Assembly: GCA_021813945.1 (NCBI GenBank)
Contig: JAKAJD010000003.1
Location: 1 to 43,192 of the forward strand
Direction: 5' to 3'
DNA length: 43,192 nt
From: a bacterium
GTDB taxonomy: Bacteria; Patescibacteriota; Microgenomatia; Curtissbacterales; GWA2-41-24
Shown: piece after piece, positions 54-19,072 of the stretch
How positions within the stretch are numbered: position 1 is the stretch's first letter
Layout of the letters: each line of letters opens with the position of its first letter
Notes under the pieces: generated by a model
What the model was told of the DNA's origin: nothing
What the model saw: the letters and a program-made list of their open reading frames with translations, nothing else
The model's database searches: none
Translations under genes and position numbers: made by a program

Positions 54-125
54 TCCCCGGTGGCGCAACGGTAGCGCGGCGAGCTGTTAACTCGAAGGCT
101 GTAGGTTCGAATCCTACCCGGGGAG
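54..125 (+). tRNA. tRNA-Asn (anticodon GTT), CCA not encoded (followed by CAA)
   Basis: Cloverleaf read directly: acceptor stem TCCCCGG(54-60)/CCGGGGA(118-124), discriminator G125, D stem GCGC/GCGC, anticodon loop CT-GTT-AA (GTT at 86-88), T arm GTAGG-TTCGAAT-CCTAC. Confidence 0.97.
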
Positions 126-1802
126 CAAAGGTGCTAAATTTGAAAAGTTTAAGGCTGTTTGGCTTGTGCTATCAGCCTTTTCTTTAGGTTCGAACATTGG
201 AGATATTTCCGGTACTTCTTGTATTGCTTCTTCAATAAACATTAACGGTTTTTCCAAATCAACACGCACAATTTTGTCTTTTAGAATAAGGTTCGAACCA
301 AGAGCAGCCAGAATCTCCCTTTTCTCTTCTCTTGTTCCGTTTTTGAACCAATGTCTGGCATGGCAAGCGAAGTTAAAAGTCTTTTCTGTCTGTGTAAACA
401 ATTTATTGACTCTATTGTCAGTATCCACGAGCTTTTCTTGCAAGGAGTCTTTTTCTATCAAAAGTGCCTCTTTTTGCGCTTTAAATTCCTCGTCTGTTAA
501 TAATGATCCATCTACATTCTGAGGGGAAATTTTGAGTTTAACTAGATTATCGATGCGTTTTAAGCAATTCTGGTATGTGTTTTGTAAAGAATCGACAATT
601 GAGCTCCTGTCTTCTATTTCTTTGTCAGTTACTTCATTAAGGTACTTAATTGCCCAATCTTTGAACTTTTCTGAAATTTGTATTTTTTCAAGCAGTTGAT
701 CTATTTGTTCTTCCAGGGTTTCTTTCCTAATGCTTCCCTGAGTACATTTCGGATTTTTCCTTTTTGTGCAGTGGTAGTAAATATAGTGTAAAAGTTTGGG
801 CTGGTGCATATTCTCAATTTTTATCTTGCAGTATGGGCACGACACCTTATTATTGGATGAAAATTTCTGGTTGCAAGCCGAGCAAATAATTTGCCATTTC
901 TCCTCGGCCGTTATTGCTGCGTTGCATTCGCCGCATTTTAGGAGACCGACGTAATCAAAGCTATTGGTTTTGGGTCTAGGGCTATCTGTTCGACCTACCA
1001 ATTTTTGAACCCGTTCGAATTCCTCTTTCGTGATCATTGGCTCATGTTTGCCCTTATGCCACTCTCCGCTTCCAGCAGGGTATTCGAAGTATCCATAATA
1101 GAAAGGGTCTGTAAACAGGCGGTAGATTGCACTTCGAGTCATAGGTTTGCCTCCTAACTTTTTGTGTTTTGGTGTTCGATAGCCCCATTCATTGTTAAGC
1201 TTTTCTAGGATTTGTGGTGGGGTATAAGCGCCAGTTATTATCAGCTCCCACGCTTTTCTGATTAGGTTAAAACTGGCAGGATCTTTCTTAATTGTTTTGC
1301 TACCCTTTTCTGCGTATTTATCGTTCATATAGCCTGGCTTTGCTCCGCTAGGGAGCCAGCCATTTTGAGCTTTTTGCTTAAGACCGCGTTTAACATTTTT
1401 GGAAAGGTCGTCAACAAACTTTTGAGCCATACCGAACTCGATATACATAAGGATGCTATTTTCATTAGTCTGGTTAAAGGTTTGGGCTGGCGTCACAATA
1501 TCTATTCCTTGCTCCTTTAATGCCCAAATAATAGAGCCACCGTCAACAGGGTTTCTTGCAAGCCTGTCTAGCTTCCAACAAAGGACGCCTTGGGCTTCTC
1601 CGGATAAAACCTTGGTCATCATTTCAGCGAATACAGGTCTTCCAGGCGCTTTTGCTGATTGTGATTCGGTAAATGTATGAGTAACTTTGATATGAAGCTT
1701 GCTTGCCAACTCCTTTAGCTCTCTTACTTGGGAATCGATTGAAAGTATTTGTCTGTCCTCAGACTCGCTTGATTTTCTTGCGTAGATGAAATATTTACTC
1801 AT
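114..1802 (-). CDS. Large serine recombinase (Int1); stop codon lies inside the tRNA (antisense)
   Basis: N-terminal YARKS catalytic Ser, DRLARN motif, recombinase domain, Zn ribbon (CGEC...CSAC...CPYC...YYHCT), coiled coil; ends LLPG*, the reverse complement of the tRNA 3' end. Confidence 0.95.
   Translation of the reverse strand: MSKYFIYARKSSESEDRQILSIDSQVRELKELASKLHIKVTHTFTESQSAKAPGRPVFAEMMTKVLSGEAQGVLCWKLDRLARNPVDGGSIIWALKEQGIDIVTPAQTFNQTNENSILMYIEFGMAQKFVDDLSKNVKRGLKQKAQNGWLPSGAKPGYMNDKYAEKGSKTIKKDPASFNLIRKAWELIITGAYTPPQILEKLNNEWGYRTPKHKKLGGKPMTRSAIYRLFTDPFYYGYFEYPAGSGEWHKGKHEPMITKEEFERVQKLVGRTDSPRPKTNSFDYVGLLKCGECNAAITAEEKWQIICSACNQKFSSNNKVSCPYCKIKIENMHQPKLLHYIYYHCTKRKNPKCTQGSIRKETLEEQIDQLLEKIQISEKFKDWAIKYLNEVTDKEIEDRSSIVDSLQNTYQNCLKRIDNLVKLKISPQNVDGSLLTDEEFKAQKEALLIEKDSLQEKLVDTDNRVNKLFTQTEKTFNFACHARHWFKNGTREEKREILAALGSNLILKDKIVRVDLEKPLMFIEEAIQEVPEISPMFEPKEKADSTSQTALNFSNLAPLLPG
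122..126 (+). other. attL core (GGAGC) at the tRNA 3' end
   Basis: GAGC recurs at 7130-7133 and 17682-17685 in the same orientation and the same codon phase (CTC = Leu on the minus strand) relative to the recombinase ORFs. Confidence 0.8.
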
Positions 1803-1824
1803 ATCTTAACTCTATTTTTTACGT

Positions 1825-1835
1825 GACTTATAGTC
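1825..1835. promoter_or_regulatory. Single C-box-like operator GACTTATAGTC upstream of int1
   Basis: Palindrome GACT-TAT-AGTC 23-33 bp upstream of the int1 start; matches the paired boxes at 3895-3920. Confidence 0.7.
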
Positions 1836-2313
1836 AACTAAGTGATTTCTTCAGCGCTAACTCTCTCGATTTCTCCTTGAGTTCTTTAATTCTCTTATTT
1901 CTTCTTTCTTCAATAGATTCGTTTTGTTCTGCCCCCTGAGCAAACTGTTCAGCCAATTGAACATGTTCTTCAGTACTGTGATCAGTATTTTCGTATGTCT
2001 GAACCAAATACGTTTCGTCATAAACATAAAGAATAGTCCTTGAAATTCTTTTTATATAACCTTTTTTAATGAGTGACTTTGTATATCCTGATAGTTTTCC
2101 TATCGACCAGTTTGGAAGCAATATGCTCTTGATTTCTCGATAGGAAAGATTAAACGTACGATAATGTCTACTTTTTGAAAAGTAGTTTGCTAATAGTCGA
2201 TATAGTCTTAAGAGTCTGACTTCGGGATCTAATAGGTGAGTTTCGACTAACAAAAGCTTTTTGTGTTCCCGAACGAATCCATTGAAGTTCACGTCTTCTA
2301 TTGTCATTTTCAT
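1834..2313 (-). CDS. Winged-helix DNA-binding protein (Rep N-terminal-like)
   Basis: LSYREIKSIL...SIGKLSGYTKSLIKKGYIKR pattern resembles a wHTH; located directly upstream of the LSR. Confidence 0.6.
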   Translation of the reverse strand: MKMTIEDVNFNGFVREHKKLLLVETHLLDPEVRLLRLYRLLANYFSKSRHYRTFNLSYREIKSILLPNWSIGKLSGYTKSLIKKGYIKRISRTILYVYDETYLVQTYENTDHSTEEHVQLAEQFAQGAEQNESIEERRNKRIKELKEKSRELALKKSLS

Positions 2314-2329
2314 TTTAAAGTTTGCCTTA

Positions 2330-2473
2330 TTAGTTCTTGGGTGGCCTATATATGGTTTTAAAAAAATTTAATAGTCTCGAAGCTTTTTCAATTGCTTCAG
2401 CGTTATTTAACCGGATTCCAAACTCTTGGTAATAGATCGTTTTAAATTCTTCCACGGCTTCCGGTGATGGCAC
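2330..2473 (-). CDS. 47-aa microprotein (not in ORF track)
   Basis: Manual translation from GTG 2473: MPSPEAVEEFKTIYYQEFGIRLNNAEAIEKASRLLNFFKTIYRPPKN*; starts immediately after the DUF5659 stop; positional paralog at 10875-11018. Confidence 0.75.
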   Translation of the reverse strand: MPSPEAVEEFKTIYYQEFGIRLNNAEAIEKASRLLNFFKTIYRPPKN

Positions 2474-2474
2474 T

Positions 2475-2723
2475 TTAGCTTTCTGCATATATCCTGGTTT
2501 TTAGTATTTTGATTTGGTTGAAGTATGATTGGGGATCAACTCTGAGTTTCCCTTGCCAGTAATCATCTATCAGCTTATTTAGTTTTGGTGTTTTTTTAAA
2601 ACGGAAGAGAACTTTAGATGGGTTAGATTTATCGATAGAATCTAAAAAGAAGAACAGTGAAATTGCCGAGGCCAAAGCCATATCGTGCGTACTGAACAGC
2701 TCCATACTTTTAGTAATAGTCAT
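2475..2723 (-). CDS. DUF5659-like small protein
   Basis: FSTHDMALASAI...IDKSNPSKVLFRF...YWQGKLRVDPQSYFNQIKILKTRIY; clearly paralogous to 11021-11275. Family name from recall. Confidence 0.75.
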   Translation of the reverse strand: MTITKSMELFSTHDMALASAISLFFFLDSIDKSNPSKVLFRFKKTPKLNKLIDDYWQGKLRVDPQSYFNQIKILKTRIYAES

Positions 2724-2773
2724 ATGGAGTTAATGATAAAAATCGGGAAAGGAAGTAGATATTACACCAATAT

Positions 2774-3394
2774 TTAAATCTTGGTGTTTAAGATATGCTC
2801 TCTGGCTCTACCGCGTTTGGTAATTTCATGTATTTTCTTTTTGTATCTATTTACTTCAGTGCCAACTGTAGAATAGACGGCCTCAAACGGCAGCTTATTC
2901 TCGTATTCATCTGCAATTTGTGAATGCGTTTTGGTTGTTTTTTCTTTTACTAAAGTGTTTTTTAAAGAAACATTTGTTGTTTTTGCTTTTGGCCTAACGG
3001 GCAAAAAACTTAATTTGTAATAAAACTGTTTTTTATTGTTTTTGATAAACGTAAATAATTCGTTTATCTTTATTTGTTCTCTGATGTTGATCTGAATTGA
3101 GGACCCTTGACCTTTGAGCTCTATAGGTTGGTGCTGGGTTTTTGTGGCTGGTGTAATCCGATTATGGAGTATTAAGTTCATAAAAGATGACAACCAAAAT
3201 AATTCCTGGAGATTATATCTTTGAACTAGAATCAAAGCATTTTCAAAGAGTTTCTGTTTTCCTTTTTTGTTTAGAATTTCAGATTCTTTTCTTGCCAACG
3301 GTAGGAAATCTTCGAGGAAGGGGTCAGACTCTAAAAGTTTAAAGAAGTTTATTTCTTCACGAGAAAGCCCTTTGTGATGAATTTTAATTTTCAT
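2774..3394 (-). CDS. Hypothetical Lys-rich protein, possible DNA-binding regulator
   Basis: 206-aa ORF in the same position as 11356-12207 in element B. Confidence 0.65.
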   Translation of the reverse strand: MKIKIHHKGLSREEINFFKLLESDPFLEDFLPLARKESEILNKKGKQKLFENALILVQRYNLQELFWLSSFMNLILHNRITPATKTQHQPIELKGQGSSIQINIREQIKINELFTFIKNNKKQFYYKLSFLPVRPKAKTTNVSLKNTLVKEKTTKTHSQIADEYENKLPFEAVYSTVGTEVNRYKKKIHEITKRGRAREHILNTKI

Positions 3395-3437
3395 TGTAAT
3401 AATTGATGGAAGACAATTATAAACTAAGCGAGAGGTA

Positions 3438-3884
3438 TTATTTTCTAATTTCGTCGAGCTTCTTTTTAACTTGGTATGGTTTGTCTATGTGTGTAAGAAC
3501 AATCTCTTGAAACGTAGTTCCGGCAGTATTAATAAATAGAGAGCCAGTTTTAGTAAGTATTTTGTCAAAAAATTTTTCTGATATTGTTACATCCGTGATC
3601 TTGTTGTAATCAACACTAATGGTGTTTGTAGAAAGAAGGCCCTTATGGACTAGTATTCTTTTATTAGTAAAAGCATACGCATTGGATTTTTTTAGATAAA
3701 AACCATAATAAATTAAGGCTACGATGAATGTTATTAATCCTAGCCCGAATATGAATAATAGGGGAACGGATATTACACCCCAGATAATTAAATATGTTTT
3801 GGAGTAATTACCGGAGACAGAAAATTCGTATAAGACTTTCTCCTTTTCAGATAACACTTTTTGCCAAATGTCTGTGTAAATCAT
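3438..3884 (-). CDS. Membrane protein with bacterial PH (bPH_2) domain
   Basis: N-terminal TM hairpin then YAFTNKRILVHKGLLS...KITDVTISEK...TGSLFINTAG, the typical bPH_2 pattern. Confidence 0.8.
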   Translation of the reverse strand: MIYTDIWQKVLSEKEKVLYEFSVSGNYSKTYLIIWGVISVPLLFIFGLGLITFIVALIYYGFYLKKSNAYAFTNKRILVHKGLLSTNTISVDYNKITDVTISEKFFDKILTKTGSLFINTAGTTFQEIVLTHIDKPYQVKKKLDEIRK

Positions 3885-3890
3885 GGCTAA

Positions 3891-3925
3891 ATGTGACTAA
3901 TAGTCCGTAGACCAATAGTCCACTT
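3891..3925. promoter_or_regulatory. Tandem C-box operator pair
   Basis: ATGT-GACTAATAGTC-CGTA-GACCAATAGTC-CACTT: two GAC(T/C)-N3-AGTC boxes at 3895 and 3910 (15-bp spacing, central GT), just upstream of the XRE gene. Confidence 0.8.
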
Positions 3926-3945
3926 TAGCCCAATTATGGTTTAAA

Positions 3946-4164
3946 GTGGTAAACAAATCAAGTCCGGTTCAAAAAAAGTTTGGTGAGAGAGTACGAAAGA
4001 TAAGAATTAAGGTAGGAATTTCCCAGGAGCAATTAGGTTTTGAGACGGGTTTGGATCGAACGTATATATCTGGGATAGAAAGAGGAACTAGAAATCCTAC
4101 TTTAAAGATAATTTCTAAGATCGCTAAAGCCCTAAAAGTTTCAGCATCAGATTTAATGAAGTAA
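3946..4164 (+). CDS. XRE-family HTH protein, R-M controller (C-protein)-like
   Basis: SQEQLG...LDRTYISGIERGTRNPTL; the LDRTYISGIER recognition helix is typical of C proteins; C-boxes upstream. Confidence 0.9.
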   Translation: MVNKSSPVQKKFGERVRKIRIKVGISQEQLGFETGLDRTYISGIERGTRNPTLKIISKIAKALKVSASDLMK

Positions 4165-4207: not shown

Positions 4208-4621
4208 ATGAACAATTTATACCAAAGTGCGATAGAGCTTAGGTATGAGGGGTTAACTTATAGAGAAATCTCCGAAAAGCTGGGGAATGGGTTATCCGAA
4301 CTTACACTAAGGCACTATTTTGCTCGCGATGGCCAGTTACACGATACTTATGAGGAGTACGAGGATGATCAGAATAAATTACGATGTAAGGAAGCAAAAA
4401 CACTTCTACGACGAGAGACTATCCATGCTGCCAGGGCTCTAATAAATACTTTAAACAGAGCGGAAGAAAAAGAAGACTACGCTTTGATTTTAAAGGTAGC
4501 AGCAATGATCTTAGATAGAAGCGGACTGCGGATTCCTAAGGATGAGTTAGGTGGAACCGAACCTGGTGATTATGCTGAGCAGAAGGAGACGAGTGAGCTA
4601 ATAAAATCCATTAAATTGTAA
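4208..4621 (+). CDS. HTH protein resembling a phage small terminase subunit
   Basis: N-terminal HTH (GLTYREISEKL...SELTLRHY), helical middle, AAMILDRSG motif seen in TerS-like proteins. Confidence 0.5.
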   Translation: MNNLYQSAIELRYEGLTYREISEKLGNGLSELTLRHYFARDGQLHDTYEEYEDDQNKLRCKEAKTLLRRETIHAARALINTLNRAEEKEDYALILKVAAMILDRSGLRIPKDELGGTEPGDYAEQKETSELIKSIKL

Positions 4622-4769: not shown

Positions 4770-5396
4770 CTACAAATGCCTTCTTATTAGACCGGCAAAG
4801 ATTCCTCTTACTTCGAAATATTTTGGATCGACATATATGTTGTTCAACTTCTTGTTCCGAGGTTGTAGCACTACTTGGCCCAAATGATTCACCCCACCGT
4901 AAATTTTTAAAGTGACTTCACCATCTACAACGGCAACGATCATTTCGTTCTGTTGAGGCACTTTTCGATATTTAATTAGGATTATGTCACTATCCCAGAC
5001 GTCGTCTTCAATCATAGAGTCACCTTTTACTTCCAGAGCATAGTAATCTTTTATGTCTCCTTTGATCATGTAGTCTGGCACATCAATGGGTTCGGGATTT
5101 TCAAACGGCTCAATTGGAGGTCCGGCTGCTATTTTTCCGAGAAGGGGTATTTGAATACTCGTTTGATGTGATAAAGAGGTAAATCCACGAGCTAGATTGG
5201 GGAGTTTTTTTATGTGGCCTTTCTTTCTTATGGCCTCAACCATTTCATGAACAGTTGAGACCGCTTTGCCTTCTTGTCTAGCCAGTTCAGAAAGACTGGG
5301 AGCATAACCGTGTTTGCGGTAGTGCGCAACCATTTTGTCTAAAATTTTCTTTTGTATTGGAGTTAATGGTCTTGGTCGAAGGGTATTGACAGTCAT
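4770..5396 (-). CDS. lexA: LexA-family autocleavable repressor (start reassigned to ATG 5396)
   Basis: LTPIQKKIL...GYAPSLSELA N-terminal wHTH; IPLLGKIAAG Ala-Gly cleavage site; GDSM catalytic Ser; VTLK catalytic Lys. Confidence 0.9.
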   Translation of the reverse strand: MTVNTLRPRPLTPIQKKILDKMVAHYRKHGYAPSLSELARQEGKAVSTVHEMVEAIRKKGHIKKLPNLARGFTSLSHQTSIQIPLLGKIAAGPPIEPFENPEPIDVPDYMIKGDIKDYYALEVKGDSMIEDDVWDSDIILIKYRKVPQQNEMIVAVVDGEVTLKIYGGVNHLGQVVLQPRNKKLNNIYVDPKYFEVRGIFAGLIRRHL

Positions 5397-5541
5397 GATT
5401 TGCGCTTGAGATAATATACCCTGAAATCTTCCGAAAGGTAAGATATCAAAAAAATCCGGGGGAAACCGAATTTGTTTGAAGGACGTTAGTCCTTTTAACA
5501 TTTAATCAATAAATCGGCATCCGGTCAAGGTGGTGATAAAA

Positions 5542-5775
5542 ATGCCAGGCAAGAATCAACATGTAGTTCCAGTAGGAAGTGATTGGGGTATTCGTGGAGA
5601 GGGCAATTCTAGACTTACTTCAGTTTTTGAAAATAAACAAGACGCATTAAAGGTAGGTAGGAAGATTGCAATCAACCAACAAGCAGAGCTTGTTATTCAC
5701 GGCCGAGATGGTCGGATCCAAGACAAGGATAGTTTTGGCCACGATCCAGTCCCGCCAAGAGATAAAAAACATTAA
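5542..5775 (+). CDS. DUF2188 family protein (start reassigned to ATG 5542)
   Basis: HVVP...WGIRGEG...F...QDA...ELVIHGRDGRIQ pattern. Confidence 0.85.
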   Translation: MPGKNQHVVPVGSDWGIRGEGNSRLTSVFENKQDALKVGRKIAINQQAELVIHGRDGRIQDKDSFGHDPVPPRDKKH

Positions 5776-5777
5776 AT

Positions 5778-7103
5778 ATGGATATTCTGACCAAGAAAAT
5801 AGAATCATTCGGTTTTGATGATATAGTGACTTTTTGCAAAGAAGGTCACCGAGAAGATTATCAAATTGATTACAAAAAAGATCTTCCTTCGAATGGTTTG
5901 GCAAAGCACTTCGCCGCTTTTTCGAATTCAAAAGGTGGTTTGATCCTAATTGGTGTTGAAGAAAATAGAATCACAGGTATTCCTATTAAGTGGGATGGTG
6001 TGAATAATGATGCGAAGTCGATTGAAAGGATACATCAGTGGGCTTCAAACGTGGAGCCTTTACCGAGAAGCACAGTTCATGTTACTGAAGAGAAAAACGG
6101 AAAGGTTTTTATATTGATTCGAATATTGGAGGGTGATCGAACACCATACTACGTTCAGAACGATTCAAATCTGTGGGTTAGGACTGGAAATATTAGTACT
6201 CCTATTGATCTTGCGTCCCCTGATTATGCAGAGTTGTTATTTAAGAGAAAAGAGCAGGCTGATATCAGCCGCAATATATTTATAAAACAGACAGCCGATG
6301 TTTATAACGCGGCTTTAAGAAGGGCAGAACGAGAACGTTTGGCGAAGATTGCGAAAGAGGCAGAAGATTACAAAAAGAAAAAAGAAGCGGGAGACCCTCA
6401 ACCCATAATAGATGCATTTGCTGGCGGCTTTCATTCCCACATTTATTCAAATAAACTTGGAAGCCAAGCCTCAATGTGTACTATCATTCTACAGCCATTT
6501 TTCCCAAAGGAGGCATTATTAAAGCCTTCTGAAATAAAAGATCGAATAGTTGAAATTAGAGATTTGCAGAGAACTCCCAGAATGTATTTTCCAGATTTAA
6601 ATGTGTGGCCAATACCTCAGGGAATTTTGCGTTTTGATTGGGGGGAAAGTGATGGACAAATTGACTGTCATCAGATTTACGCTTCTGGTTTGGTTTACTC
6701 TTCAACTGATGTTTTGATGGTAGACCATGAATCTAAGAAAAAACTAATTTACTTGTCTCACGTTTTAGGAAGACTATTTCAAGTTTTGAAGGCGGCTAGT
6801 AATTTTTATCAAATTGCCGGATACCAAGGTGGTGTGGAAGGATATCTGGAGCTGGCTAATACTGAGGATATTAGCTTGGTGGGGTTTCAGCATGAGCTTT
6901 TTAACAGAGATTTGCTGGGTTTAATGCCCAGCTACCAACTTAATTTTTCAGATTTAGATACTTCAAAATTAAGTGACCCTAAAGCTTTCCAGGAATTTTT
7001 CGAGAATTATGTTAAAGAATTTTTCTGGTCTATTGGAAAGCCTGACTTGCACGAGTCTCTAATTAAGAAATTTTTGCAAGATAATCAGTGGCTTGTCACG
7101 TAA
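5778..7103 (+). CDS. Schlafen/AlbA_2-domain protein with an unknown C-terminal domain
   Basis: E...IDYKK...KHFAAFSNSKGGLILIGVEE AlbA_2 signature in the first ~150 aa. Confidence 0.85.
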   Translation: MDILTKKIESFGFDDIVTFCKEGHREDYQIDYKKDLPSNGLAKHFAAFSNSKGGLILIGVEENRITGIPIKWDGVNNDAKSIERIHQWASNVEPLPRSTVHVTEEKNGKVFILIRILEGDRTPYYVQNDSNLWVRTGNISTPIDLASPDYAELLFKRKEQADISRNIFIKQTADVYNAALRRAERERLAKIAKEAEDYKKKKEAGDPQPIIDAFAGGFHSHIYSNKLGSQASMCTIILQPFFPKEALLKPSEIKDRIVEIRDLQRTPRMYFPDLNVWPIPQGILRFDWGESDGQIDCHQIYASGLVYSSTDVLMVDHESKKKLIYLSHVLGRLFQVLKAASNFYQIAGYQGGVEGYLELANTEDISLVGFQHELFNRDLLGLMPSYQLNFSDLDTSKLSDPKAFQEFFENYVKEFFWSIGKPDLHESLIKKFLQDNQWLVT

Positions 7104-8698
7104 CTGGTTCTAACGTTCTCTACTAGGCGGAGCCAAATAGGACGCTCAAGGTATAAATGACCTGTTTGGAGCGTATTGTCAGGCTTTTCTTTAGGTTCGA
7201 AAGTTTTATCTGTAATTTCTTCTTTATTCTGCACTTTCGAATTATTTGTTATTCGTACAGCTTCGGCAAGGAGTTCAAATGTCTTTGAGTATTCAATATT
7301 AAGCTTGCCTTCGTTAAGGGTAAGTTTTGAGAATACCAGGTTGATAAGGGCTCGTTTATCCTCTTCGCTCTTTGCTTTCTCGTATATCTGTCTGGCTCTT
7401 TGGGAAAGCTCGTAAATGTTAATCCCTAATTGGTAGTATTTACTACTTGCGTGGTTGTGCTTTTCCGCAGTTTGGGTGAGTTTATCCAACTCGTCATTCC
7501 ACTGCTTTGATAACCTGTTATACGCCTCTTCGGTGACTTTGCCATCCAGCTTATCAATGTATAACTTATCCAGTCGGTTTCTCAGTAATTCTTGTTTCTG
7601 ATTGAGCTCAGCAATAACAGATGTGTAATATGCAATTTGGTCTTTGTGACCTTCTTTCAAAGCTTTTCTTATCCACTCGACAATTCGGGTATTCTTAATT
7701 TCCAGCTTCTCAAACTCACCAACAATCTGCTTTTCAACTTCATCTTGTGTTACCCAACTCTTTTGTGAACAGTTTTTATAGTGATTACAGTGACCGTAAA
7801 TAATGCCTTTATGTATTTCCCAAGTAATCGTTCCATTGCATTCTTGGCAACGAAGCACCCCCTTAAATCTATAGCTATGTTTGGCGTATTTGGGAGTATT
7901 TTTACTTCTGAGTAGCGACTGTACTTTATAAAATACTTCCTCGGATAGTAATACTGGGTGATTTCCTTTATAGATTTCTCTGTTCCAGCACATCTTGCCA
8001 ATGTAAAACGGGTCACAAAGTAGTCTATGAATTCTGCTTTTAACCACTTTACTTCCACTATCGTTTCTTAAGCCTTCCTCATACATTTTGGTTGTGAGTT
8101 TCTTGAGCGAGTATTCACCGGACGAATACAGCTCAAACATTTTTCTAATGAATCCTGCTTTTTCTTCATCAATAATGTGCGTTTTGTGCCCTTTTTCTCC
8201 TATGGTTTTGTAGCCGATTGGCGGTTTAGTGGGTAGCCAACCTTGAGCAATTTTCTCCTTTTGCCCCTTCTTTACATTCTCCGACAGCAATCTGACATAG
8301 TATTCGGCAGTGGCTACCTTTACTCTCCACATAAACCACTCATGGGACTTTGAGTTTTTGTGTAATATGCAGCCTTCCTTAGCAAGATGAATCTGGTTGT
8401 TATCGTTCTCTAAAACCCACTTATCAATGGTTGGAACATCAGCGAAGTTACGAGTTAGGCGGTCTGTGGTTTCGACAATAACCACGGAAATTTTGAATTT
8501 ACGAATGTAAGCAGCCATCTCATTGAATACTTTTCTTTGAACACTTCCGCTTGCTGATTCTGAAACTGCAAATACTTTTTCAATAGTAAAGTTATTGCGT
8601 CCAGCATAATCCCGAAGGTACTTCTCTTGTGCGGGAAGGGAATAGCCCGTTTCCTCCTGCTCTTTACTCGATACTCTGCAAAATAAAACTGCTTTCAT
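7085..8698 (-). CDS. Large serine recombinase (Int2), currently with a chimeric C-terminal tail
   Basis: FCRVSS catalytic Ser, DRLTRN, recombinase domain, Zn ribbon CQEC...YGHCNHYKNC, coiled coil; reads through the att junction (W-L at 7135-7130). Confidence 0.95.
   Translation of the reverse strand: MKAVLFCRVSSKEQEETGYSLPAQEKYLRDYAGRNNFTIEKVFAVSESASGSVQRKVFNEMAAYIRKFKISVVIVETTDRLTRNFADVPTIDKWVLENDNNQIHLAKEGCILHKNSKSHEWFMWRVKVATAEYYVRLLSENVKKGQKEKIAQGWLPTKPPIGYKTIGEKGHKTHIIDEEKAGFIRKMFELYSSGEYSLKKLTTKMYEEGLRNDSGSKVVKSRIHRLLCDPFYIGKMCWNREIYKGNHPVLLSEEVFYKVQSLLRSKNTPKYAKHSYRFKGVLRCQECNGTITWEIHKGIIYGHCNHYKNCSQKSWVTQDEVEKQIVGEFEKLEIKNTRIVEWIRKALKEGHKDQIAYYTSVIAELNQKQELLRNRLDKLYIDKLDGKVTEEAYNRLSKQWNDELDKLTQTAEKHNHASSKYYQLGINIYELSQRARQIYEKAKSEEDKRALINLVFSKLTLNEGKLNIEYSKTFELLAEAVRITNNSKVQNKEEITDKTFEPKEKPDNTLQTGHLYLERPIWLRLVENVRTSYVTSH
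7129..7144 (+). other. Hybrid att junction: right end of element A and left end of element B
   Basis: GGAGCCA core; the arm GCCAAATAGGACG (7132-7144) is the inverted complement, 11/13, of CGTCCCACTTGGC (17669-17681). Confidence 0.8.
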
Positions 8699-8724
8699 AT
8701 TTTTATAGTTATTTTTAGTATATT

Positions 8725-8754
8725 GATACTATCAAGTAATGTCAACTAATATCA
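8725..8754 (+). promoter_or_regulatory. 10-bp tandem direct repeats upstream of int2
   Basis: GATACTATCA-AGTAATGTCA-ACTAATATCA; the same unit occurs at 12273-12292. Confidence 0.65.
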
Positions 8755-8958
8755 TAAATGTGAACCTATTTCCAATTCCGCCCATTGAGCCTTATCAATA
8801 ATTCTCCGCATAAGGGATGCCAAATGTTTTCTACACCTTACACATGGGGATGGGGCTTTCGTAGAAATATATTCATCAATCGCTTCTGTCAGAAGAATTA
8901 AATCTTGCCTATCTACCTCTAATTGATAATACCTCTTTTTATTGTTTATATTCTTCAT
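8752..8958 (-). CDS. Small hypothetical protein (CxxC)
   Basis: 68-aa ORF overlapping the upstream ATPase stop by 4 nt (ATGA). Confidence 0.6.
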   Translation of the reverse strand: MKNINNKKRYYQLEVDRQDLILLTEAIDEYISTKAPSPCVRCRKHLASLMRRIIDKAQWAELEIGSHL

Positions 8959-10250
8959 ATCGATTCACCCCCTGTGTCTGCTGACATTTCGGGTAAGGAC
9001 TCGTCTGACCCAAAAATCTCTTTGGCGGTTTCAACAATATCTTCGTGTGGTTTGGCATTACCAAGGAGTTCTCTTGTGGACTCTTTTATTCTCCACCTGT
9101 CTGCCACGCCTTGTCCTTGATGTTCTCTATCGATAAGTCCAAGCCCATTGAGGTCTTCCAATAATCTCCTGGTTGTGTTTGTGGGATAGCCGATTTTCGT
9201 TGCTATTTCTGCTGTAGTGAGATAGTCTTGCGTTTCAAGTAAAATTCCTATTGCTAATTTTCGCTTTATCGGTAAACAGTCAAAGCCAACTTTATATACC
9301 AGTTCATAGTCCTCATCAGCAAACTCACCATTACGCATTAAAGCCATTGCCGAGCATAAAGTGATGAGTTGTTTGGCAAGTCGAGTAGGAAGTTCAACAT
9401 CAGGTATTTGTTCAATCTCTCTCGTAGAATAACTTTCTCTAATAACGCCACTTCTTGCTCTGGTTACAAAACTTGCAAGATTAGCAATTCGGTCTATCAA
9501 CGATTCAGGAAGTGAGTAATTTGTCTCTGGGACGTTGATGCTTTCAATATAATCAGTAAAAGCAGTCTGAATTTCCGTTCTCATTGCCGTTTCACCTCCA
9601 CTATTTGCAATTGCTTTCTTGGCTACAGCTATGTAATCGGGTTGCAGGGGGCGGTATTGGATAAAACGCTCTCCTAATACCGTGTATATTTCGTGATGTC
9701 TATCAATAACGGTGGTGACACCAGCGATAAAGCCTATTTTGCCTTGCCACTCCTTTGTTTCTCCAGTTCCAAATTCTTTGCGATAGGTGCCGTCGAATAT
9801 TTCTCGTAGCTGCGAAATAATAACCTGCTGTTTATCACGGTGCATACTGAGCACTGTCGTGAAGTCTTTCAAGGTAAGAATTGTTCCGGTTGGTATACGC
9901 AATAATAAACTTGCGTTTTTGTTACCCTTTTCACCACTGAGGAAAGTTTGCGTTGTTAGGTCAGATAAAGCGTATATTTTCTCAATTTTGTTGAGTCCTC
10001 GAATAAGCTCTGTTTTTGTGGCTCCTGGCGGAGCGACGATAAACAACCACACAGGGTCGGCATTTAAACGGTTGGCGATAACAGTTGCAGCAAGCAATCG
10101 AAGAATACCCTTATCTTTTATTAACAGCCACTTATTCACGATACTTTCCAGTGTGTTAAAGTCTATCGGATGCCTGTCCTCAAGCAGGTTCTTTTCTATT
10201 TCTAAGAATTTTTGCTCTATTTTTTGCTCGTTAAATGAATAATTTGTCAT
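8955..10250 (-). CDS. AAA+/MCM-like ATPase with C-terminal wHTH, putative replicative helicase
   Basis: Walker A-like VAPPGATKTE, Walker B-like ILTLKDF, QLREIFDG, GFIAGVT, LGERF arginine-finger region, C-terminal TTAEIATKIGYPTNTTRRLLEDL HTH. Confidence 0.7.
   Translation of the reverse strand: MTNYSFNEQKIEQKFLEIEKNLLEDRHPIDFNTLESIVNKWLLIKDKGILRLLAATVIANRLNADPVWLFIVAPPGATKTELIRGLNKIEKIYALSDLTTQTFLSGEKGNKNASLLLRIPTGTILTLKDFTTVLSMHRDKQQVIISQLREIFDGTYRKEFGTGETKEWQGKIGFIAGVTTVIDRHHEIYTVLGERFIQYRPLQPDYIAVAKKAIANSGGETAMRTEIQTAFTDYIESINVPETNYSLPESLIDRIANLASFVTRARSGVIRESYSTREIEQIPDVELPTRLAKQLITLCSAMALMRNGEFADEDYELVYKVGFDCLPIKRKLAIGILLETQDYLTTAEIATKIGYPTNTTRRLLEDLNGLGLIDREHQGQGVADRWRIKESTRELLGNAKPHEDIVETAKEIFGSDESLPEMSADTGGESI
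8983..8996 (-). repeat. Element B dispersed motif TTACCCGAAATGTC, copy 1
   Basis: GACATTTCGGGTAA on the plus strand; exact match to the reverse complement of 17563-17576. Confidence 0.75.
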
Positions 10251-10882
10251 AGATTTCCATTGAGATAATTAACTGCTTCTTTGAATGAATAGTTGTGTAG
10301 TAACCGGACAAGATTGATAGAATTACCCCCTTGATTACACCCAAAACACCAACAGGTATTTGAATCAGGGTAAATAAAGAATGAAGGCGTATGTTCTTCG
10401 TGAAGTGGGCATAAACATACGATTCTGCTTCCGCTTCTGCGAAGCCTCACATCCTTACTGAGGAGTGTTTCGATAGGCACTTGAAGTGCTGAGGACATTT
10501 CGTCTTCACTCAATCTGTTTAATTTCTTTGCTTGCCTATTTTTACTAATCCAGAGGAGATGTTTCAGTCTTGAAATGTGGGTATCAACTTCAAATAGCTT
10601 CTGTCCCTCCGTTGCTTTTATCCATTCCCTCCAAAACCATTGCGTAAAGTCGTCTTTAATCTCTCTTTTAATATACGAAAGCTTATTTGCTATGGTTTGC
10701 ACTAACAAGACTCGGTCTACCTCGAATTCTGAGATTTTAACGGGGATAATTTCTTTTGCTTCAGGAAATATTGCCAATAGCTCTTTATCTGTATATTTAG
10801 GCTGGCTTTTTCGCCATTCTTTTTCCAGCTCAAAGGCATAGTCAAGATACTCATCGTCTATTACTAAGGTTTTATTATTCAT
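10247..10882 (-). CDS. Stand-alone CHC2 (DnaG-type) primase zinc-finger protein
   Basis: C-terminal CPLHEEHTPSF...WCFGCNQGGN; no TOPRIM domain; ATGA overlap with the ATPase gene. Confidence 0.85.
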   Translation of the reverse strand: MNNKTLVIDDEYLDYAFELEKEWRKSQPKYTDKELLAIFPEAKEIIPVKISEFEVDRVLLVQTIANKLSYIKREIKDDFTQWFWREWIKATEGQKLFEVDTHISRLKHLLWISKNRQAKKLNRLSEDEMSSALQVPIETLLSKDVRLRRSGSRIVCLCPLHEEHTPSFFIYPDSNTCWCFGCNQGGNSINLVRLLHNYSFKEAVNYLNGNL

Positions 10883-11018
10883 AGTTGATTTTTATTAGTA
10901 GTTCAAAAAACATAACCAGAGAATTTCCAATTTCAGATAGTTCGGATGGAGTTAAACTAACTCCGTAATCCTCTTCAATAATAGTCTTGAGCTCTTGTAA
11001 TAGTTGTTGACTAACCAT
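10875..11018 (-). CDS. 47-aa microprotein (not in ORF track)
   Basis: Manual translation: MVSQQLLQELKTIIEEDYGVSLTPSELSEIGNSLVMFFELLIKINYE*; overlaps the next start codon; similar to 2330-2473. Confidence 0.8.
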   Translation of the reverse strand: MVSQQLLQELKTIIEEDYGVSLTPSELSEIGNSLVMFFELLIKINYE

Positions 11019-11020
11019 AG

Positions 11021-11275
11021 CTATCTTTCTCCGTAAATCCTCCCTTTAATTACCTTGAGCTGGTTAAAGTAAGCCAAAGGCTCGACTCTGACCTCTCTTC
11101 GCCAAAAAGACTCAATAAGCTCATCGAGTTGTTCGTTGCGTTGGAACAGAAAACTAACTTTGTGAGGAGAGGTTCTGTCTATCGAATCAATAGGAAACCA
11201 AAGTGATATAGCAGTAGCCAACGGGAGACTTTGTGTGGAGTAAATAGTATCCAGTTTTATGTTTTCTTGGCTCAT
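11021..11275 (-). CDS. DUF5659-like small protein
   Basis: YSTQSLPLATAI...IDRTSPHKVSFLF...FWRREVRVEPLAYFNQLKVIKGRIY; paralog of 2475-2723. Confidence 0.78.
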   Translation of the reverse strand: MSQENIKLDTIYSTQSLPLATAISLWFPIDSIDRTSPHKVSFLFQRNEQLDELIESFWRREVRVEPLAYFNQLKVIKGRIYGER

Positions 11276-11355
11276 ACTTATGCAAATAAAAAAGCTCTGA
11301 ACTTTTACATCCAGAGCTTACCAAGTGAGCCTCTTGAAATTGTGACACTAATTTT

Positions 11356-12207
11356 TCATTTTTTGTGTAGTAGAAGTCTTGCTCGCTCTTTTAATCGTTG
11401 TTTTTGTTTACGCACGACTTGACTCCTTTTACCAGTATTATCATTAAATATTCTGGTTGCTAAGTCTGTCGAGGTAACCTTGTGGTGCTCTTCCTCACCC
11501 CCAAGCCCTCTTGCAAAATCGAACCGGTGTTCAATCTGTCCCATTTTTCTTGTTTTCAAAGCCGTATCAAGAGTGCGGAAACGCCTGCGTATATTTTTGC
11601 TTCTTTTTAGAATTTCTTTAAGCTCTCTATATGCCTGTCTAAACTTGGGTTTTGGTATTTGCGGGTTATTTCCGACTATTCCTTTAAAGCAGGCGAGAAT
11701 AAATTTTTTCTCTTGAGTGGTAAGCACAAACCTTTCTATTTCGTCAACGTGGTTTATTACTTGGTTAATAAGTTCGAAGTTATAGGAGGGAATATATGAT
11801 GGTTTGCCATAAAGTAGATAGTCTTGTACCCAATCGTAAAAATTCAGTGGCAATTTATACTCTTGTATAAGGTCAGTAATCGTTTTTTCAAGCATTTCCC
11901 GTTTCGCGGGTGGCAATGATTCTAGCCAGTCGTGTACTTCGATGTCTACGCTCCTGCCTTCGTACTCAATTTGTATGGTTTTAAAATCATGATTGGGGTT
12001 CAGACTGGGGATTTTAAATTGTGTTTGTATATCTCGGATTTCCGCGTTAAACTTCTTATCCCGTTTAAGATAAGTCGCAATCTCCTCATTTAGATTGCTT
12101 CGCACTCCAAAGAATTTTTCGGCTTCACGCCACAAACTTATTTGAATTAGAGTGCCAATGGGAGAAAGTTTCTTTAATGTATTGATGTGTTTTTTCTTTA
12201 ATCTCAT
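11356..12207 (-). CDS. Hypothetical protein with a basic C-terminus
   Basis: 283-aa ORF, first gene of the leftward backbone operon. Confidence 0.7.
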   Translation of the reverse strand: MRLKKKHINTLKKLSPIGTLIQISLWREAEKFFGVRSNLNEEIATYLKRDKKFNAEIRDIQTQFKIPSLNPNHDFKTIQIEYEGRSVDIEVHDWLESLPPAKREMLEKTITDLIQEYKLPLNFYDWVQDYLLYGKPSYIPSYNFELINQVINHVDEIERFVLTTQEKKFILACFKGIVGNNPQIPKPKFRQAYRELKEILKRSKNIRRRFRTLDTALKTRKMGQIEHRFDFARGLGGEEEHHKVTSTDLATRIFNDNTGKRSQVVRKQKQRLKERARLLLHKK

Positions 12208-12225
12208 TCTTATGTTTATACTTCG

Positions 12226-12242
12226 GTTTACCCGAAAAGTCG
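12226..12242 (+). repeat. Element B dispersed motif, copy 2
   Basis: GTTTACCCGAAAAGTCG, 16/17 identical to 17561-17577; in the divergent promoter region. Confidence 0.75.
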
Positions 12243-12272
12243 GTTAATTGATTTAGCCTGGTGATAGTGTAT

Positions 12273-12292
12273 ACTAATATCAAGTAATATCA
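12273..12292 (+). promoter_or_regulatory. 10-bp tandem direct repeats upstream of the excisionase-like gene
   Basis: ACTAATATCA-AGTAATATCA, ending 11 bp before ATG 12304; TATCAAGTAAT(A/G)TCAA is 15/16 identical to 8730-8745. Confidence 0.65.
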
Positions 12293-12303
12293 AAGAATAA
12301 TTT

Positions 12304-12489
12304 ATGAAAAAAGACAATAGCGAAGGTTTAATTAAGCTTAGCGAGGCATGTAAGATTCTGAATGTTCACCCCCAAACGCTCCGGCAGTGGGATAGAAAAG
12401 GGATTCTAAAAGCTGTGAGGTTTGGACAAAGAGGTGATAGGAGATATAGAAAGGAAGATATCTTAAAATTAATTGGCAAAAAAACTTAG
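12304..12489 (+). CDS. MerR-type HTH, excisionase/RDF-like
   Basis: LIKLSEACKILNVHPQTLRQWDRKG...GDRRYRKEDI. Confidence 0.9.
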   Translation: MKKDNSEGLIKLSEACKILNVHPQTLRQWDRKGILKAVRFGQRGDRRYRKEDILKLIGKKT

Positions 12490-12491
12490 TT

Positions 12492-12908
12492 ATGAATCTA
12501 AATATTAAGGAATTCTTGTCGTCAAGCCTTGTAGATGCAGTAAAAAGGCTTGGCATAGTTGGGACGATTTCTTATGTAGGAGCTGCCACTGTTTTCGTTG
12601 TTCTCCTTTTGGTCAATTTTAATGCGGAACCTGTAAAAGCTGGCGTGTTGTTAAGCATAGGCGTTGCCTTGTTAATGTACTCAGGAGCAATCTATTGGTC
12701 TGAAACAAAACAAGAAACCGAGAAAATGAAGGAGGCTTTAGGAGTTCTGCGTGAGGTATATAACCGTATGGCCGAACAAATATCAACAGCAGATAAAGAT
12801 AAAACCGTTTCAATAACCATGACTATTGATAACCTGCCAGATAAAATTGCAGAGGTTATTAAGAAGACTTCAATTCAAGGAAAAGAAAGTCATGAAACAA
12901 AAAAATAA
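12492..12908 (+). CDS. Two-TM membrane protein with coiled-coil tail
   Basis: Two hydrophobic segments followed by a charged helical region. Confidence 0.7.
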   Translation: MNLNIKEFLSSSLVDAVKRLGIVGTISYVGAATVFVVLLLVNFNAEPVKAGVLLSIGVALLMYSGAIYWSETKQETEKMKEALGVLREVYNRMAEQISTADKDKTVSITMTIDNLPDKIAEVIKKTSIQGKESHETKK

Positions 12909-17768: not shown

Positions 17769-18053
17769 ATGACGAATCGAAAGACATACTATTTTTACAT
17801 TCTCCGCTGCGCTGACAATTCACTTTATTGTGGGATGAGTTCTAATTTAGAAAACCGACTTAAAGAACACAACTCCAACGGCTCAAAAGGAGCTAAATAT
17901 TTGAGAGGTAAAAAGCCGGTTAAATTTGTACACACGGAAAAATTTCAAGATATTAAATCAGCTATGAATAGGGAGTTGCAAGTTAAGAGGTGGACTAAAG
18001 CTAAAAAGGAGGCTTTGATAGCCGGAAATTTTGAATTGTTAAAAAAGTTATAA
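17769..18053 (+). CDS. Stand-alone GIY-YIG nuclease (UPF0213-like)
   Basis: YFYIL...LYCG, RLKEH, A...E..VK.W...KK..LI. Confidence 0.9.
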   Translation: MTNRKTYYFYILRCADNSLYCGMSSNLENRLKEHNSNGSKGAKYLRGKKPVKFVHTEKFQDIKSAMNRELQVKRWTKAKKEALIAGNFELLKKL

Positions 18054-18159
18054 ATTGAAAAATTGTAATCGGAAATTTATATTAAGGATACCTACCTGCT
18101 TGCCAAAATTGATTAAAGGAGTCAGTTTTGTAGTCAATAAAGCGCGGTAGAAGAGAACA

Positions 18160-19072
18160 ATGAAATCTATTTTGATAAAGCCACCATCATCTCCGCTAGT
18201 GACAGTAATCCTCCGCTGTCTAGGAATTGGAGTAATCTACGCTGTGACCAACGCACTAGTAGCGGTTTTGCTGGGACAAATGACCCGTCTCGCCCCGACC
18301 TGGGAAACGCCCTTATCTGGACCCTAACCGGCACTATTATCGCTTTATCCTTGAGTCCTTTTATTCGTCACTCTTTCTGGTCGCGAAACAAAACTATTCT
18401 TGCAGTGTGGACACTTTTAACGTTTGTCCGTGCAATCGGATTGGGAATTGAAGGCGCTCTTTTCAAGCCTACCACCGCGACTAACCAATTCGTTAGTGCA
18501 ATCACTGGTACTCTTGTCCTTCTATGGATTGCCTGGGTCGCCGTCCGTTTGCTCGCTCCAAATACTCTAGCAAAGAGTGTGGACGGAATAAGATTTCCCA
18601 GTTCGATTAAAGCCTGGTGGGAATGGATTTTGCGAGTAATAGTTGGCAGTCTATCTTACCTTGTTTTCTACTTTGTGTTTGGAGCTGCGAACGCTTTCCT
18701 GTACACCCTTTTGTGTTTGGAGCTGCGAACGCTTTCCTGTACACCCTGAGTTTTTACAAGGACAATCCACAGTACGGATTCAGTCTTCCGCCTGTTGGAA
18801 TAATCTTTATCGCACTACTAATACGCGGTCCTCTCATGGTTCTTGGTGCTGCTCTCCTTGCCCAGTCTGTGTCGGTATCGCGTCGCCAGCTTGCGGTCTG
18901 GTTGGGTCTGCTCCTGTTCGTTGTGGATGGGCTTGCCGCCTATGTTGAGGGGACCTTCCGCACAATGCCGTTGGGCTTTAATATGGCAACACTCGCCGAG
19001 CTTTTCTTCCAGAACTTTCTAACCGGTGTGGTCGTCGCCTACTTGTTTGGCAATCAGTCCCAGAGGGGCTGA
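18160..19072 (+). pseudogene. Multi-pass membrane protein gene with two frameshifts
   Basis: Hydrophobic coding in three consecutive frames: ATG 18160 frame to ~18295, the 18351-18749 frame, then the 18617-19072 frame after a 38-bp duplication; repaired length about 291 aa. Confidence 0.7.
18672..18747 (+). repeat. Perfect 38-bp tandem duplication
   Basis: TTTGTGTTTGGAGCTGCGAACGCTTTCCTGTACACCCT at 18672-18709 and 18710-18747. Confidence 0.95.

Follow-up and report, generated by a model that had tools for sequence, protein, structure and literature searches.

A proposed controller-family regulatory switch with a cognate site at the predicted promoter of a large serine recombinase gene in a Patescibacteria mini-island

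Controller (C) proteins of restriction-modification (R-M) systems serve as the textbook timing switch for establishing a toxic mobile gene pair in a new cell. In the Esp1396I circuit, the C protein acts on a paired operator (O_L and O_R) at the common promoter of the C and restriction endonuclease (REase) genes and on a separate operator (O_M) at the promoter of the methyltransferase (MTase) gene. Switches of the C.AhdI, C.PvuII, and C.BclI type follow an activate-then-repress logic and have leaderless C transcripts (PMC2632904, PMC2691842). Sorokin et al. 2009 (PMC2632904) scanned the region from -100 to +50 of C genes and found most C homologues with C-box-like sites to be without R-M genes; many adjoin resolvases, integrases, or transposases, and some may regulate other functions, their targets being left open. 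Here, we analyzed a stretch of 43,192 nucleotides from a Patescibacteria genome of the order Curtissbacterales (assembly GCA_021813945.1, contig JAKAJD010000003.1), hereafter the window. Its left end carries a mobile island (element A) with a gene for a 72-amino-acid (aa) regulator of the C-protein type (3946..4164, plus strand) and the gene int1, coding for a large serine recombinase (LSR) of 562 aa (114..1802, minus strand). Taken together, the sequence makes it likely that this island is mobilized by its LSR, is inserted at a tRNA-Asn gene, and is governed by a C-family switch that regulates its own operon and represses int1 as in the Esp1396I circuit.

The regulator gene starts with GTG and translates into MVNKSSPVQKKFGERVRKIRIKVGISQEQLGFETGLDRTYISGIERGTRNPTLKIISKIAKALKVSASDLMK. 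It was identified by phmmer searches of the PDB, by PADLOC, and by the Pfam family HTH_3. C proteins filled the top 10 PDB matches (1e-11 to 3e-14), among them C.AhdI (3.4e-14), C.BclI (2.2e-13), and C.Esp1396I (1.2e-12, with mutants also at ~1e-12), the next match reaching only 3e-8. The top PADLOC model was Control_protein PDLC03665 (2.8e-21, positions 5-69 of 77). An ungapped alignment with C.Esp1396I places residues E28, D37, R38, T39, Y40, R46, and R49 on E25, D34, R35, T36, Y37, R43, and R46, respectively; PMC2504287 describes the roles of E25 (tetramer contact), R35, and Y37, and PMC3488213 describes those of D34, R35, and the loop 43-46. A first-pass annotation of the sequence had described this XRE protein as a C protein with the segment LDRTYISGIER; the segment is present as residues 36-46, and the PDB and PADLOC matches agree with that description. 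By sequence and operator, we accordingly assign the 72-aa protein to the R-M controller protein family, and it is without the linkage to R-M genes that belongs to the definition of the class. An exact look-up of the protein among the indexed contig proteins gave no match, probably owing to the GTG start, and the gene is uncalled in the annotation of two related loci (L142 and L147). For comparison, 80 genome loci and 80 metagenome loci with relatives of the C protein were fetched (loci are denoted by L and a number), and the closest relatives among them belong to Patescibacteria.

The regulator gene is preceded by a 61-bp divergent intergenic region in which a pattern search located a 35-bp paired operator (3891..3925, plus strand). 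It consists of O_L, GACTAATAGTC, at 3895-3905 and O_R, GACCAATAGTC, at 3910-3920, spaced by 15 bp and with GT at 3907-3908 within the spacer CGTA, so that the two GAC(T/C)-N3-AGTC boxes with central GT reported upstream of the XRE gene in the first reading were all recovered. The operator matches the C-box consensus GACT-N3-AGTC-N4-GACT-N3-AGTC at 15 of 16 positions and ends 26 bp ahead of the C start codon. That the 35-bp site is close to the C.Esp1396I operator had been stated in the initial annotation; the comparison of the window site, ATGTGACTAATAGTCCGTAGACCAATAGTCCACTT, with the native, crystallized operator, ATGTGACTTATAGTCCGTGTGATTATAGTCAACAT, joined from the halves printed in PMC2504287, yields 26 of 35 identical positions. 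Within the whole window, GACYNNNAGTC gave 8 strand-matches against 0.93 expected, a number reached in none of 100 shuffles. A -10-like TATGGT read from the sequence (3935..3940, plus strand) lies 5 nt before the GTG of the C gene, a geometry predicted to be leaderless, and the matching -35 position is poor and overlapped by O_R. This -10-to-start spacing is repeated in L001-L003 and L142, and such a geometry has been described for leaderless C-activated promoters (PMC2632904). C homologues in L001-L004, L142, and others have this C-box pair upstream in identical or nearly identical form (identical in L001-L003), and 83 species genomes spread over many phyla contain its operator class, GTGACTWATAGTCCGTAGAC. 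Four loci from outside the candidate phyla radiation (CPR) have three C-boxes clustered ~360-420 bp upstream of the matched C gene (L263, 9585-9649; L267, 9567-9631; L275; L276), which may reflect tandem C-like genes or an extra operator.

The site proposed to connect the regulator with the integrase is a single C-box, GACTTATAGTC, at 1825..1835. It is a perfect palindrome located upstream of int1, 23-33 bp from the A of its ATG (1802, minus strand), exactly where a third box had been noticed at first inspection, and chance would yield the exact 11-mer 0.015 times per window and 2e-5 times per given 60-bp stretch. The extended site, ACGTGACTTATAGTCAAC (1821-1838), combines the left half of the Esp1396I O_L (14 of 15 positions identical over 1821-1835) with the right flank of the Esp1396I O_R (ATAGTCAAC). 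A consensus scan predicts the int1 promoter as TTGACT-17-TAGAGT (1809..1837, minus strand, 9/12), and the box spans the last four -35 bases and the first seven spacer bases of this promoter, also overlapping the stop codon of a 159-aa open reading frame (ORF). Since the -10 element ends 6 nt before the ATG, the int1 mRNA is suggested to be leaderless or near-leaderless; a Shine-Dalgarno sequence is not visible. The geometry is retained in L142 as TTGACT-18-TACAGT-6-ATG. The placement of a single cognate C-box on the predicted int1 promoter is thereby supported. With its centre only 28 bp from the ATG, the box would allow a bound C dimer to occlude the promoter or to block read-through, but not to activate, and class II (or class I) activation of int1 through this site was consequently ruled out.

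Conservation of the int-proximal box was followed in the loci sharing the operator class, many of which carry an LSR gene nearby on the opposite strand. One of them, L142, shares ~70% DNA identity with the window, the same tRNA-Asn/SIMPL insertion site, and operator boxes identical to those of the window. At 6948 it holds a GACATATAGTC box, 24-34 bp upstream of the LSR ATG, the LSR gene being preceded by ATGTGACATATAGTCAAC, and the blastn match to the window stops 8 bp past this int-proximal box. L142 also contains a perfect GACTAATAGTC box at 11981-11991, inside a 600-aa ORF downstream of its homologue of the 137-aa gene that follows C in the window; this may have arisen by chance or be an additional regulatory site. 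Boxes with at most one mismatch lie 26-32 bp upstream of the LSR start in L004 (4427, 30 bp upstream, within GTTGACTATAAGTAACGTA), L001 (9230, 26 bp upstream), and L251 (5144, a perfect box followed two bases later by TATAAT), although these LSRs are only 24-34% identical to int1 or int2, the recombinase of a second element in the window. In L258 (6185), a box with no more than one mismatch overlaps the initial codons of an LSR ~30% identical to int1, and in L005 the paired operator itself is situated ~63 bp upstream of the LSR gene. The background, determined as extra boxes with at most one mismatch in 80 other, unrelated loci with the same operator, amounted to 13 per 603 kb. Against this, 5-6 LSR-upstream boxes were observed where ~0.03 are expected for roughly 20 LSR-upstream regions. 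The site conservation upstream of homologous integrase genes which the initial annotation had proposed to check is hence found in L142, L001, L004, L251, and L258.

A second line of evidence comes from 61 fetched loci with relatives of int1. Of these int1-family loci, 19 have a small XRE gene no more than 6 kb upstream, usually accompanied by the 52-aa and DUF5659 genes also present in the window, and nine sampled regulators all had PADLOC Control_protein as best match (1e-17 to 1e-24). C-family regulators thus appear, by sequence, to be common and routine in this LSR element family. As auto-operators they have double boxes that differ in sequence (GACGATAAGTC, ATGCTAGTTAT, CGACTNNCAGTA, and ATACAAGGAGTA), each type being repeated within 60 bp upstream of its own integrase gene: GACGATAAGTC in L081, L085, L090, L094, and L109 (19-21 bp before the ATG), ATGCTAGTTAT in L082, L083, L096, and L130, CGACTNNCAGTA in L086 and L091, and ATACAAGGAGTA in L135. 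The sequence differences between the motif groups are what a regulator-target relationship predicts. Cognate pairs of operator and int-upstream site with at least 11 of 12 matches were found in 12 of 21 loci compared with 4.3% of the non-cognate (other-group) pairs (Mann-Whitney p 7.5e-6, a value that is only approximate because related loci are not phylogenetically independent). With the operator-integrase link present in five of eight motif groups, we regard a regulatory connection between regulator and integrase as well supported at the sequence level.

The same operator class also includes R-M versions of the arrangement. In L153 and L179 an extra single box (GGGACTTATAGTCAAC and GTGACTTATAATCAAC, respectively) precedes the gene of an MTase, the families being N6_N4_Mtase and Eco57I/N6_Mtase/TaqI_C. 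This MTase gene runs convergently to the C gene and its downstream neighbour, which codes for a SwaI-like REase in L179 and for an unannotated 240-aa ORF in L153. The early analogy with the Esp1396I methyltransferase operator proved apt, and because the single box precedes the MTase gene in L153 and L179 and int1 in the window, int1 stands in the place of the MTase.

Cargo in the relatives was called by targeted Pfam searches, a survey of the gene after C in the 80 genome loci being too noisy. Several islands with the LSR-DUF5659-C backbone carry R-M genes directly 3' of C, namely complete Type I R-M systems in L007 and L012 (10236-15900) and, in L009 (10252-14868), a C5 MTase with partner genes including a HATPase protein; DUF5659 was confirmed in L012 and L009. 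L016 (3360-7479) shows the same operator, and its genes 3' of C encode a C5 MTase, a REase of the NgoFVII family, and a Z1 protein, with no LSR found within its 8-kb contig. The same operator is followed by an HNH endonuclease gene 3' of C in L021, with no LSR within the locus. A ThsB-like TIR protein is encoded next to C in L004 (10215-10817) and an ABC/FtsX pair in L003, and a co-directional gene downstream of C is absent from L001, L005, and L008. Since the downstream cargo of the relatives differs in this way, the C-controlled slot is variable and the orphan 137-aa gene of the window is one occupant. As a separate observation, L008 (11333-13039) holds an OLD-family AAA_15+TOPRIM nuclease gene convergent with a C-family regulator gene.

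The sequence gives the regulator family, the operator architecture, and, for the int-proximal site, its position, conservation, and co-variation; from these we infer C binding, its regulatory sign, leaderless starts, and timing as follows. A C dimer on the distal O_L would activate the weak, probably leaderless promoter of the C and 137-aa genes, comparable to C.Esp1396I and C.AhdI, and a second dimer on O_R, over the -35 position, would then close it. C protein would also bind the single palindromic box over the int1 -35 element and repress the integrase gene, and at this site it may in addition stop read-through from the leftward operon. On entry into a cell lacking C, the island would thus give a pulse of integrase that is shut off as C accumulates, leading to stable integrated residence.

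The main rival to this model differs from it only by having no activation or timing step. C would be a plain maintenance repressor of int1 and the leftward operon, similar to phage CI or ICEBs1 ImmR, and its likeness to C proteins would reflect shared XRE ancestry and a tetramer-on-35-bp binding mode. Repressors controlling the integrase are the norm in temperate elements. The operator is situated in a divergent intergenic region only 7 bp from the start of the leftward gene, and a leftward TTGATT-17-CATAAT promoter from the consensus scan would cross it. In L001, L005, and L008 there is no co-directional gene to be timed, which leaves C itself, the divergent operon, and the integrase gene as the obvious targets. 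Nevertheless, the box spacing, the poor -35 under O_R, and the -10 at 5-6 nt from the start fit activator-dependent C promoters (PMC2632904). The backbone-related L007, L009, and L012 have bona fide R-M genes directly 3' of C, and L016 (R-M) and L021 (HNH endonuclease) have such genes behind the same operator without an LSR within the locus. Moreover, neither a cleavage domain nor an antirepressor partner of C is apparent. We therefore judge this explanation to be unlikely, though it fares better than the others.

Alternatively, the box at 1825-1835 could be functional in a way other than promoter occlusion, either as a roadblock to read-through or as a site for the recombinase, a directionality factor, or a host factor. 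Read-through is plausible with int1 as the last gene of a tight leftward string with gaps of 16-50 bp, the box of L258 lies just inside the LSR coding start, and roadblock control by a C protein is documented for C.Kpn2I, at least as outlined in PMC6237814. A roadblock would be a variant of the C-switch model rather than opposed to it, because C would still repress int1. A site for another protein is at odds with the box sequence following, in five motif groups, the C operator found in the same element, which indicates a C-family regulator as the binder, and the attachment sites of this LSR family appear at the 3' end of the integrase gene by the tRNA gene and not at its 5' end. We consider this group of explanations improbable. 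Least credible, and already disfavoured, is that the third box is a chance palindrome and the C gene an orphan remnant of a lost R-M system: two further GACYNNNAGTC matches do occur in host genes (16887 and 41600), many same-class LSR loci are without an int site, and R-M genes were not found in the island, but the expected frequency of the exact 11-mer in a given 60-bp region is as low as stated above, L142 keeps its position, as do distant relatives with LSRs of only ~25-34% identity, other motif groups co-vary, and the C ORF is intact, with 89% protein identity to its L142 counterpart at ~76% DNA identity.

Several points weigh against the C-switch model itself. First of all, the int-proximal box is absent from about two thirds of the LSR loci of the same operator class (L007, L009, L012, L033, L236, L243, L244, L250, L273, and L299), and the operator-integrase link is missing in three of the eight motif groups; as a consequence, the int-proximal site has to be taken as an optional feature. 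Among these loci, the Saccharibacteria R-M islands L007, L009, L012, and L033 have no int-proximal box at up to one mismatch, and two-mismatch boxes over the start codon in this group were treated as chance. The promoter calls are consensus matches and the whole scan, with 21 found compared with 18.3 expected, is not above chance, so that the assignment of the int1 promoter relies on its conservation. Furthermore, leaderless translation is disfavoured by the GTG with which the C gene starts, the backbone-contacting S52 of C.Esp1396I is replaced by I55, and a LexA-like S24 repressor encoded at 4770..5501 may be the real induction switch. The approximate nature of the p-value given above belongs to the same side of the balance.

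The remaining genes of element A complete this picture. On the left, the island adjoins, like nine other loci, a tRNA-Asn(GTT) gene (54..126, plus strand; ARAGORN, Rfam), and int1 extends into this gene with its 3' end; tRNA was the only match of the Rfam scan. The domains of int1 in Pfam are Resolvase (PF00239), Recombinase (PF07508), and Zn_ribbon_recom (PF13408). Between int1 and the operator, a leftward string (1834..3884, minus strand) encodes proteins of 159 aa, 52 aa, 82 aa (DUF5659), and 206 aa and a bPH_2 membrane protein of 148 aa, the five genes, examined by ORFs, Pfam, and PHROGs, being packed tightly and operon-like in appearance. The orphan 137-aa gene (4208..4621, plus strand) starts 43 bp 3' of the C gene and is probably co-transcribed with it. 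Its product shows a weak N-terminal helix-turn-helix (HTH) match (Pfam Sigma70_r4_2, E 2e-4, below cutoff) and weak, non-terminase PHROGs matches, and it has a single homologue among 5.8 billion proteins, the one in L142. The earlier label "TerS-like" had to be dropped: a small terminase was rejected in the absence of any terminase match in Pfam or PHROGs, of a tblastn match in 50,697 phage records, and of a match in the PDB. Neither MTase nor REase families were found by Pfam and PADLOC in the scanned window ORFs of at least 90 aa. Of the original statement that element A contains neither enzyme, the MTase part is firm, whereas the REase part is less so because REases are hard to recognize.

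The LexA-like gene, which follows the 137-aa gene and shows a strong TTGACA-18-GATAAT at 5386-5415, was dropped as a part of the conserved module and is unexplained cargo, not being found in related elements. Together with a DUF2188 protein (E 2e-33 to PDC-S16, a candidate defence family in PADLOC) and a Schlafen/AlbA_2 protein of 441 aa, it fills the region between the C module and int2 (4770-7103), whose genes look like variable, possibly defence-related cargo absent from L142 and other related elements. By tandem logic, the right edge of element A is probably at ~7.1 kb, where int2 ends; no direct repeat or tRNA fragment was detected there, the sole repeat being the homology of the 3' coding ends of int1 and int2 (155-194 and 7162-7201, 83% identity over 40 nt, both FEPKEK..), outside of which the two proteins are only ~25% identical. 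This repeat contains TAGGTTCGAA, which is also found in the T-arm of the adjacent tRNA-Asn (102-111), and it may mark an attachment-site region inside the 3' end of the integrase gene.

Element B, the second and related LSR element in tandem, extends to ~12.5 kb (7085-12500). It comprises int2 (7085-8698), a 68-aa gene, a 431-aa HTH gene, a primase zinc-finger gene, a gene homologous to the 52-aa one, DUF5659, a 283-aa gene, and, in divergent orientation, a 61-aa MerR/HTH_17 gene of the excisionase-like kind (12304-12489). A motif TATCAAGTAAT(G/A)TCAA is found both upstream of int2 (8729-8754) and in the divergent region by the 61-aa HTH gene (12265-12299), apparently the same logic of a regulator site repeated at the integrase gene with another regulator family. 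Farther away, window positions 18001-19000 form a local G+C peak of 0.46 compared with ~0.38-0.40 around it, with overlapping ORFs lacking a Pfam or Rfam match.

Insertion beside tRNA genes is typical for tyrosine integrases and unusual for serine integrases. In the collected loci, LSR 3' ends abut convergent tRNA-Asn genes, or enter them by a few bases, in the window, L082, L083, L088, L094, L095, L130, L001, L004, and L005. Other convergent tRNAs at LSR ends are those for Gln (L102-L104, L107, L135, and L007), Ser (L098 and L132), Lys (L009 and L012), Pro (L033), Met (L112), and Asp (L106), and in L132 a tRNA-Ser(TGA) flanks both sides of a ~5.5-kb element (2092-2179 and 7681-7770). A viral origin was examined as well: int1 has no relatives in IMG/VR, and the island is without structural genes.

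Going beyond the single island, it is possible, though we put this forward tentatively, that C-family switches are the standard master regulators of a large undescribed family of Patescibacteria LSR mini-islands beside tRNA genes. The integrase would be expressed early and then repressed, and the slot after C would host interchangeable, potentially toxic cargo such as Type I R-M, Type II R-M, ThsB-TIR, or an orphan gene, so that these switches would form one class with R-M controllers as a cargo-agnostic timer for new DNA. If true, the same small circuit would couple integration to establishment, regulators, operators, and large serine recombinases would come in matched sets, and a mobile-island family would be recognized in the poorly studied Patescibacteria, some of whose members carry defence genes controlled by C. 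Type I R-M and non-R-M defence genes with possible C-type control merit a separate look. The term "repurposed" from R-M, used in the first-pass annotation, is not carried over: the data give no evolutionary direction, C-family regulators are routine in the LSR family, and non-R-M homologues near recombinases were already noted in 2009 (PMC2632904).

In comparison with known systems, the closest counterpart is the C.Esp1396I circuit. In both, the small XRE protein shares one and the same recognition segment, LDRTYISGIER, the paired operator covers 35 bp (26 of 35 positions shared), and a single site standing apart has a common TATAGTC core and, in the window, lies on the predicted core promoter of a second gene expected to be expressed first, and the R-M version of this circuit has its equivalents in L153 and L179. 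The window differs in that the second target is an LSR gene instead of an MTase gene, and that the island, in which no REase or MTase was found, has a 137-aa orphan probably co-transcribed with C. Its single site is an 11-bp O_L-type box GAC-T-TATA-GTC, in contrast to O_M, which was compared by description only and is given in the Esp1396I papers as almost perfectly palindromic without the extra base of O_L. The C/R transcript of Esp1396I has a leader of 27 nt (PMC2691842), compared with the leaderless-looking geometry in the window. C.AhdI, C.PvuII, and C.BclI resemble the window system by the double C-box, with C.AhdI and C.BclI as top sequence matches; there, C acts on its own operon, and hence on the REase, only, and a second operator at an unrelated gene is not described.

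Element-encoded autoregulated repressors of the phage CI type and ICEBs1 ImmR hold the recombinase promoter off in the resident state and resemble the regulator at the level of the XRE family. They are larger, or paired with a protease or cleavage domain for induction, and their operators are not a fixed 35-bp double C-box. Nor are they the closest sequence relatives of the 72-aa protein. The survey of Sorokin et al. 2009 (PMC2632904) already made known that C homologues occur near recombinases; cognate sites at recombinase promoters were not reported there, CPR LSR islands were not in the data at that time, and our literature search found no description of a cognate C-box at a recombinase promoter. 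What the present analysis adds is a predicted C-box at a serine-integrase promoter that co-varies with the operator of the regulator, and for one class of C homologues the window thereby offers a concrete, testable answer to the question of targets left open since 2009.

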